Shown piece after piece: positions 4,573 to 4,650 of a stretch of 4,650 nt of DNA; position 1 is the stretch's first letter, and each line of letters begins with the position of its first letter. The position numbers were made by a program, and so were the translations under genes. Origin of the DNA: a virus. Taxonomy: Duplodnaviria > Heunggongvirae > Uroviricota > Caudoviricetes. The notes under the pieces were generated by a model that saw only the letters and a program-made list of their open reading frames with translations, made no database searches and was not told the origin of the DNA. Where the stretch lies: the IMG/VR virus record IMGVR_UViG_2698536392_000019. One strand, written 5' to 3'.

Positions 4573-4614
4573 TTGTCCCACTCCCGCTCGCGACTGTCCC
4601 TATAATGCGCCGCC
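4573..4614 (+). promoter_or_regulatory. Stable-RNA-type promoter-like element (TATAAT plus GC-rich discriminator), pointing rightward out of the window
   Basis: TATAAT at 4601-4606 followed directly by GCGCCGCC, resembling the -10/discriminator of rRNA and tRNA promoters. The only -35-like hexamer, TTGTCC (4573-4578), is 22 bp upstream, which is too far, so this is weak. Confidence 0.3.
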
Positions 4615-4621
4615 ATTGAAT

Positions 4622-4650
4622 CTGATCCTACCCACGTAATATGGACACAG
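4622..4650. repeat. Right arm of the window-terminal imperfect inverted repeat
   Basis: See left arm. Shared blocks are GTGTCCA, TATT, TGGGTA and GATCAG in inverted orientation. Confidence 0.5.

Follow-up and report, generated by a model that had tools for sequence, protein, structure and literature searches.

A promoter look-alike beside nleA, probably the antisense of integrase codons in a relic lambda-type sib-attP-int module

At the right edge of a 4,650-nt stretch of tailed-phage DNA (Caudoviricetes, IMG/VR record IMGVR_UViG_2698536392_000019), hereafter referred to as the window and corresponding to L001 2102-6751 of Escherichia coli strain 2013C-4830, the sequence TATAATGCGCCGCC occurs once, on the plus strand. 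It looks like the -10 hexamer and discriminator of a stringently controlled ribosomal or transfer RNA (tRNA) promoter that points out of the window. An earlier note took it for a possible promoter of that class and, given that lambdoid prophages often integrate beside tRNA genes, for a possible prophage/chromosome junction. Here we ask what this motif is. The answer, to which we assign a probability of roughly 93%, is that its likeness to a promoter is due to chance and that it lies antisense to a decayed integrase gene (int), which is part of a module that also holds a retroregulation site (sib) and a phage attachment site (attP) and that lies next to the effector gene nleA. Gene remnants of this sort are known, and the feature is an ordinary one.

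Promoter likeness and the codons on the other strand

The motif was compared with the -10/discriminator region of rrnB P1 from E. coli K-12. Window positions 4597-4615 (TCCCTATAATGCGCCGCCA) and the core of rrnB P1 (L008 250-268, TCCCTATAATGCGCCACCA) are identical at 18 of 19 bases, the longest exact run common to both being 15 bases, and a -10 hexamer followed by a G+C-rich discriminator is therefore present. TATAAT as such is found nine times in the A+T-rich window, where 3.8 +/- 2.0 occurrences are expected. Promoters of the rrn P1 type rely on a near-consensus -35 hexamer at 16 bp together with UP and Fis elements. In rrnB P1 the -35 spacer is 16 bp, whereas the sole TTGACA-like hexamer near the window motif, TTGTCC (4573-4578, 4/6 matches), lies 22 bp upstream of the -10. 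At spacers of 15-19 bp no -35 was found, the hexamers there matching TTGACA at zero to two of six positions, so that the 16-18 bp expected of a stringent promoter are not available, and the TG of an extended -10 is absent as well. A consensus promoter/terminator scan of 3900-4650 did not include the motif among its listed sites and returned fewer promoter-like sites than were obtained from shuffled sequences. The resemblance to stringent promoters that the earlier note described is thus real and stronger than it claimed, and its remark on the poor -35 spacing is confirmed.

On the minus strand the same bases are coding sequence. Translation of the int remnant (Table 1) yields the C-terminal sequence DSMAAHYRDSREREWDKIEIG* of a tyrosine integrase of the lambda family, and TATAATGCGCCGCC is the complement of the codons for Ala-Ala-His-Tyr-Arg. 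Read from its left end, TATAAT has a T that pairs with base one of the Arg codon, then ATA opposite the Tyr codon and AT opposite two bases of the His codon. The discriminator GCGCCGCC pairs with the remaining third base of this His codon, with two Ala codons and with the last base of the preceding Met codon. The Tyr codon (4602-4604, ATA on the plus strand) is that of the catalytic tyrosine and aligns with lambda Int Tyr342.

Homology to integrases was tested on an uninterrupted ortholog, the 3' end of which is the window sequence. The copies that lack the IS3 insertion sequence at this place, those of E2348/69 and O157 Xuzhou21, are annotated as a frameshifted tyrosine recombinase pseudogene of 995 bp on the minus strand, without N-terminus, which continues the window sequence. 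The E2348/69 reading frame matches the lambda Int structures 1p7d, 5j0n and 1z1g with E-values of about 1e-121 (best 5e-122), and Pfam identifies Phage_integrase (PF00589, 1.3e-38) along with the SAM-like and central domains. In its alignment with lambda Int HKSDSMAAHYRD stands opposite HKSDTMASQYRD and, over a longer segment, HKSDSMAAHYRDSREREWDKIEI opposite HKSDTMASQYRDDRGREWDKIEI; AAHYRD is aligned to ASQYRD, by which query Tyr253 (offset 89) becomes lambda Int residue 342, the catalytic nucleophile. Homology hence extends across the catalytic domain and includes the catalytic Tyr near the C-terminus. A complete open reading frame (ORF) of about 356 amino acids is not found, since 21 codons and a stop are left before IS3, and the uninterrupted relatives have frameshifts and internal stops and miss the N-terminus. 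What stands at 4557-4622 is accordingly the remnant of a gene and no longer a gene. In every copy of this lineage that was examined (E2348/69, O157 Xuzhou21 and plasmid p14EC017c) int is a pseudogene.

Relatives differ in the hexamer. A perfect TATAAT is confined to the pseudogene copies of E2348/69, O157 and the window, while the intact 356-amino-acid integrase (WP_000533670.1) of the prophage in yfaT of O111:H- strain 11128 has TGTAAC at this position (encoding Arg-Tyr, with TAC for Tyr), the plasmid copy TATAAC, HK022 and phage Gally TATACC, and lambda GATACT. TATAAT and the TGTAAC of the intact relative are separated by two transitions, one synonymous at Tyr and one from Arg to His; the intact O111 integrase and the E2348/69 pseudogene product are 89% identical over 266 residues. 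At the same place the int gene of HK022 already matches rrnB P1 at 16 of 19 bases.

A lambda-type attachment site next to nleA

The DNA from 4281 to 4622 is 78% identical to HK022 and 73.5% identical to lambda, and this similarity extends over the sib site, the attP and the 3' end of int annotated in the two phages. In the sib hairpin hardly a base differs from the sib annotated in HK022 or from that of lambda; as RNA the hairpin folds with -27.6 kcal/mol (z = -7.9), and it was also recovered as inverted repeat I2 in a repeat search. The consensus terminator scan missed it because its loop exceeds the limit of the tool, and it was by folding and the repeat search that sib was recovered. To its right follow a P arm, a core and a P' arm, next to int and with arm-type Int sites in both arms, as the alignment with the lambda and HK022 attP demonstrates. 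The arm-type block GTCATTATTGGTCAAAATAAAATCATTAT in the P' arm is conserved; it abuts and overlaps the int stop codon. The G+C content over 4282-4556 is 29.5%. Coordinates are listed in Table 1.

Table 1. Positions of the features discussed in the text, in window coordinates
Feature	Position	Strand	Description or evidence
IS3, second copy, last 27 bases (transposase-proximal repeat)	1-27	-	L001 872-2128, same orientation as right-hand copy
Tail-fibre ORF	74-1063	+	Collagen-like Gly-X-Y repeats (Pfam Collagen)
Direct repeat, 127 nt (91%)	1194-1320 and 2039-2165		Tail-fibre C-terminal coding sequence (Pfam Phage_fiber_C)
ORF, 180 amino acids	1555-2097	+	Between tail-fibre repeats
nleA, type III secretion effector	2579-3901	-	RefSeq annotation of identical sequence
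sib / tI-type hairpin, then U-run	4282-4332	-	Retroregulation site and terminator ending the int transcript
P1-like site CAGGTCACTAAT	near 4334-4345
P arm of attP homologue	4335-4469	.	Alignment to lambda and HK022
P2-like site TTGTGACTC	within 4361-4380
att core CTTCTGACATGGAAG	4470-4484	.	Column-for-column alignment with lambda core GCTTTTTTATACTAA
P' arm of attP homologue	4485-4560	.	Lambda and HK022 alignments; annotated HK022 attP mapped onto the window
int 3' remnant, lambda-family tyrosine integrase	4557-4622	-	21 codons and TAA stop (4557-4559)
Flagged motif TATAATGCGCCGCC	4601-4614	+	-10/discriminator look-alike
IS3 terminal inverted repeat, first 28 bases (transposase-distal end)	4623-4650	-	1258-bp copy truncating int; L001 6724-7981

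The order and orientation of sib hairpin, P arm, core, P' arm and an int gene that reads toward attP are those of lambda and HK022, and the P1, P2 and P' arm-type sites are kept, as is the Int C-terminus with its catalytic Tyr. The window differs from both phages in its core, CTTCTGACATGGAAG with an attB in yfaT, which is unlike GCTTTTTTATACTAA of lambda and unlike the HK022 sequence aligned at that position. It also differs in that int has been cut to 22 codons by IS3 and in that the module is buried in the effector locus of another prophage.

The partner sites were identified by a search with 4330-4622. Genomes of O111 and O26 match 4330-4484 alone, at 100%, after which they continue into a DUF1175 gene fragment. 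In O111:H- 11128 the order at attR is nleA, sib, P arm, core, 3' part of yfaT and yfaS, and about 14 kb from attR come xis, an intact int and an attL that is joined to the 5' part of yfaT. The four sites read CTCCTTCTGACATGGAAGTTGTTC (attP, window), CAACTTATGACATGGAAGGACACC (attB, yfaT of strain ST540), CAACTTATGACATGGAAGTTGTAT (attL, O111:H- 11128) and CTCCTTCTGACATGGAAGGACACC (attR, O111:H- 11128). All of them share the 11-bp TGACATGGAAG without a mismatch, and by this comparison of attP, attB, attL and attR the crossover is placed within it. The core is therefore identical to that of an attB for which recombinant attL and attR exist. In the window neither core flank matches yfaT. Both are phage-type and align to the corresponding arms, P and P', in lambda and HK022, so that the window site is an unrecombined attP rather than an attL or attR. 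The yfaT prophage of O111:H- 11128 and the window thus have an identical P arm and core, a similar P' arm (at attL in the prophage) and nleA beside the P arm, but in the prophage the site has been recombined to attL and attR, int is intact and the hexamer is not TATAAT. A literature search on yfaT as an integration site returned general surveys only.

The yfaT element itself (L011 1-15100) is about 14 kb long. Besides nleA, nleG and lysis genes it retains int and xis in intact form, but none of its annotated genes encodes a head, tail or other structural protein; it is a prophage with heavy deletions, in which att sites and integrase look intact.

The IS3 junction and the readings of the motif

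What lies to the right of the motif is an IS3 copy 1258 bp in length. It has TG...CA termini and imperfect terminal repeats starting TGATC, and its minus-strand transposase is annotated with a programmed frameshift. Length, ends and the two-ORF (orfA/orfB) frameshifted transposase are those of IS3, and the element itself is unremarkable. Its flanks, by contrast, are not contiguous in relatives. Compared with E2348/69 (L002 4723-5973) 1251 bp are missing here, namely the rest of the int pseudogene, a tail-fibre fragment and the 5' end of nleH1-2. The 3 bp ATC, which would fit a target-site duplication from simple insertion, are found on both sides of IS3; in E2348/69, however, 1251 bp separate the two flanks, and nleH1-2 has the right-hand ATC as part of its own sequence. 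Beyond IS3 (from L001 7982) the sequence continues with nleH1-2 without its 5' end and then nleF. A megablast search of 3900-4650 against complete E. coli genomes gave identity over the whole query in 2013C-4830 and 2012C-4227, the other near-full-length matches listed agreeing up to window position 4626 and diverging thereafter; the right-hand IS3 junction is present in two of 5,426 complete genomes.

Searches for tRNA and transfer-messenger RNA genes (ARAGORN) and for Rfam families at the gathering threshold, run on the window and on 12.7 kb of the source genome, had no match, nor did they find a tRNA or Rfam family in the 6 kb beyond the window. The stable RNA gene that the earlier note suggested past 4650 is thus missing within 6 kb, and IS3 stands in its place. 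Inspection by eye of the IS3 end and its flank for a hybrid outward promoter showed no convincing -35/-10 pair.

A working rightward sigma-70 promoter of the stringent type (rrn P1 or tRNA), producing either a stable RNA or an RNA antisense to int or the IS3 transposase, would account for the perfect TATAAT, its GCGCC discriminator and the near identity to rrnB P1, and it would have an A+T-rich P' arm upstream. The motif, however, points into IS3 from 4623 onward, antisense to the transposase, with the truncated nleH1-2 behind it, instead of at a stable RNA gene such as that downstream of rrnB P1; no usable -35 or TG extension accompanies it, and it consists of coding sequence of the integrase remnant on the other strand, with a hexamer that intact relatives do not conserve. 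We regard such a promoter as highly improbable, and the promoter reading fails because neither a stable RNA gene nor an att repeat is present downstream, which the earlier note had itself named as telling against it. Recombinational capture of part of an rrn P1 promoter by the prophage would explain an exact run of 15 bases within an 18/19 match. Yet the homology to int is unbroken through the motif and past both its sides, identity with rrnB P1 ends at the edges of the 19-mer, and HK022 int comes within three bases of it. Capture was rejected on account of the unbroken int homology, its probability being close to nil. Because HK022 int is already so similar and the hexamer is not conserved, the likeness to rrnB P1 is best seen as a by-product of int codons and not as a promoter that was captured or selected.

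The other proposal, that the site is the actual attL or attR junction of the nleA prophage in this genome, gains from an int remnant and an att core that lie within 150 bp and from the fact that this core is the real yfaT junction in O111:H- 11128 and related genomes. Here, though, both arms are of the phage type, yfaT is matched on neither side and cargo (nleH1-2, nleF and IS remnants) continues rightward. In addition, Nakamura et al. (2021, PMC8112680) place the locus of the nleA, nleH and nleF effectors at the end of defective prophages whose integration site is ompW, and attribute variation at that locus to IS elements; an int/attP relic is not mentioned in the sections consulted. A junction at this site in this genome is exceedingly improbable. 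An att repeat was sought downstream of 4650 and is absent, the DNA there being IS3, and the core lies instead 117 bp upstream of the motif. The boundary idea is accordingly supported in part: an int remnant and a complete lambda-type att site do exist, and the place is a true junction beside nleA in O111:H-, so that it came close historically and in location while being wrong for this genome.

We therefore retain the explanation that the motif is the antisense of decayed integrase codons and suppose that it is transcriptionally inert or negligible. Three points weigh against this. An identity of 18/19 with rrnB P1 is striking for pure chance, a perfect -10 is able to give some transcription without a -35, and the A+T-rich P' arm lies roughly at the position of an UP element. 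Weak, unselected rightward transcription from the -10 may thus occur and constitutes the residual uncertainty; such transcription would run antisense into the IS3 transposase.

As to its origin, 4282-4622 is best read as an integration module of the lambda style from an ancestral lambdoid phage that carried nleA. The gene order in the window is the vegetative one, with tail fibre, nleA cargo, sib/tI, attP and a leftward int in the places of J, b region, att and int in lambda. A junction of this kind arises where prophages stand in tandem or where a circular phage genome has recombined with the locus. The int pseudogene of E2348/69, without its 5' end, abuts a 72-bp tail-fibre C-terminal fragment, which is followed by nleH1-2 and nleF, and this arrangement suggests that a deletion took nearly all of the second phage and spared the cargo. 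In the lineage of the window an IS3 insertion at 4622/4623 would then have replaced a further 1251 bp. The module is probably a fossil from the time when the effector locus was assembled, left behind by recombination or by tandem integration.

Neighbouring genes and the meaning of the relic attachment site

In the window nleA is cargo between the tail-fibre genes and sib-attP-int. The region upstream of it (3902-4281) has a G+C content of 25.5%, as against 59% in the tail-fibre segment, and is presumably the promoter/regulatory region of nleA. The tail-fibre ORF, with eight 33-nt units in its collagen-like repeats, has its 5' end cut by the left IS3. A third Phage_fiber_C fragment, besides the two copies of the direct repeat, follows the int pseudogene in E2348/69 (L002 5645-5716), and the copies of this repeat resemble recombination scars around cargo cassettes. 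The 180-amino-acid ORF between the repeats, whose 3' end enters the second of them, had no match in Pfam and is annotated in RefSeq solely as a partial hypothetical protein; the corresponding interval of O157 holds a frameshifted DUF1076 (NleG-like) gene.

The window as a whole spans exactly the interval from one IS3 copy to another of like orientation. The 4.6-kb segment so bracketed, with the 3' part of the tail fibre, nleA and sib-attP, is composite-transposon-like or might serve as a substrate for IS3-IS3 deletion. Plasmid p14EC017c (NZ_CP024137.1, L010, 107 kb) carries nleA, the sib-attP-int relic (86.9% identity) and an IS21 remnant, a plasmid record being an unusual location for a prophage effector cassette with nleA. 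In O157 Xuzhou21 (L007 6862-6927) an ORF for the EAST1 heat-stable enterotoxin lies in transposase remnants just downstream of nleF.

The relic sib-attP-int junction could be more than debris, either as a scar of the assembly of the ompW-prophage effector locus or as a live recombination substrate, but we consider this unlikely. A scar might have formed by tandem or prophage-in-prophage integration, or else by recombination with a circular nleA phage of the yfaT type; in each case a deletion reaching from int as far as the next tail-fibre end would have followed. The relic attP has its core and arm sites intact, and some O26 and O111 genomes possess both it and the yfaT prophage site. If the junction were live, the intact, 89%-identical integrase of the yfaT prophage might still recombine the relic attP in strains with both, and effector cassettes lying between this attP and the att sites in yfaT might then be inverted, deleted or mobilised by Int.

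The removal of a false promoter/tRNA lead is of little importance in itself. It does supply an example in which the antisense of conserved codons, those around the catalytic Tyr of lambda-type integrases, copies the best-known promoter of E. coli at nearly every base, and as a by-product it gives a precise att definition for the integrase associated with nleA, with core CTTCTGACATGGAAG and attB in yfaT. An unrecombined attP beside the nleA cassette bears on how the effector loci of enteropathogenic and enterohaemorrhagic E. coli prophages were assembled and on their reshuffling by IS elements (PMC8112680).
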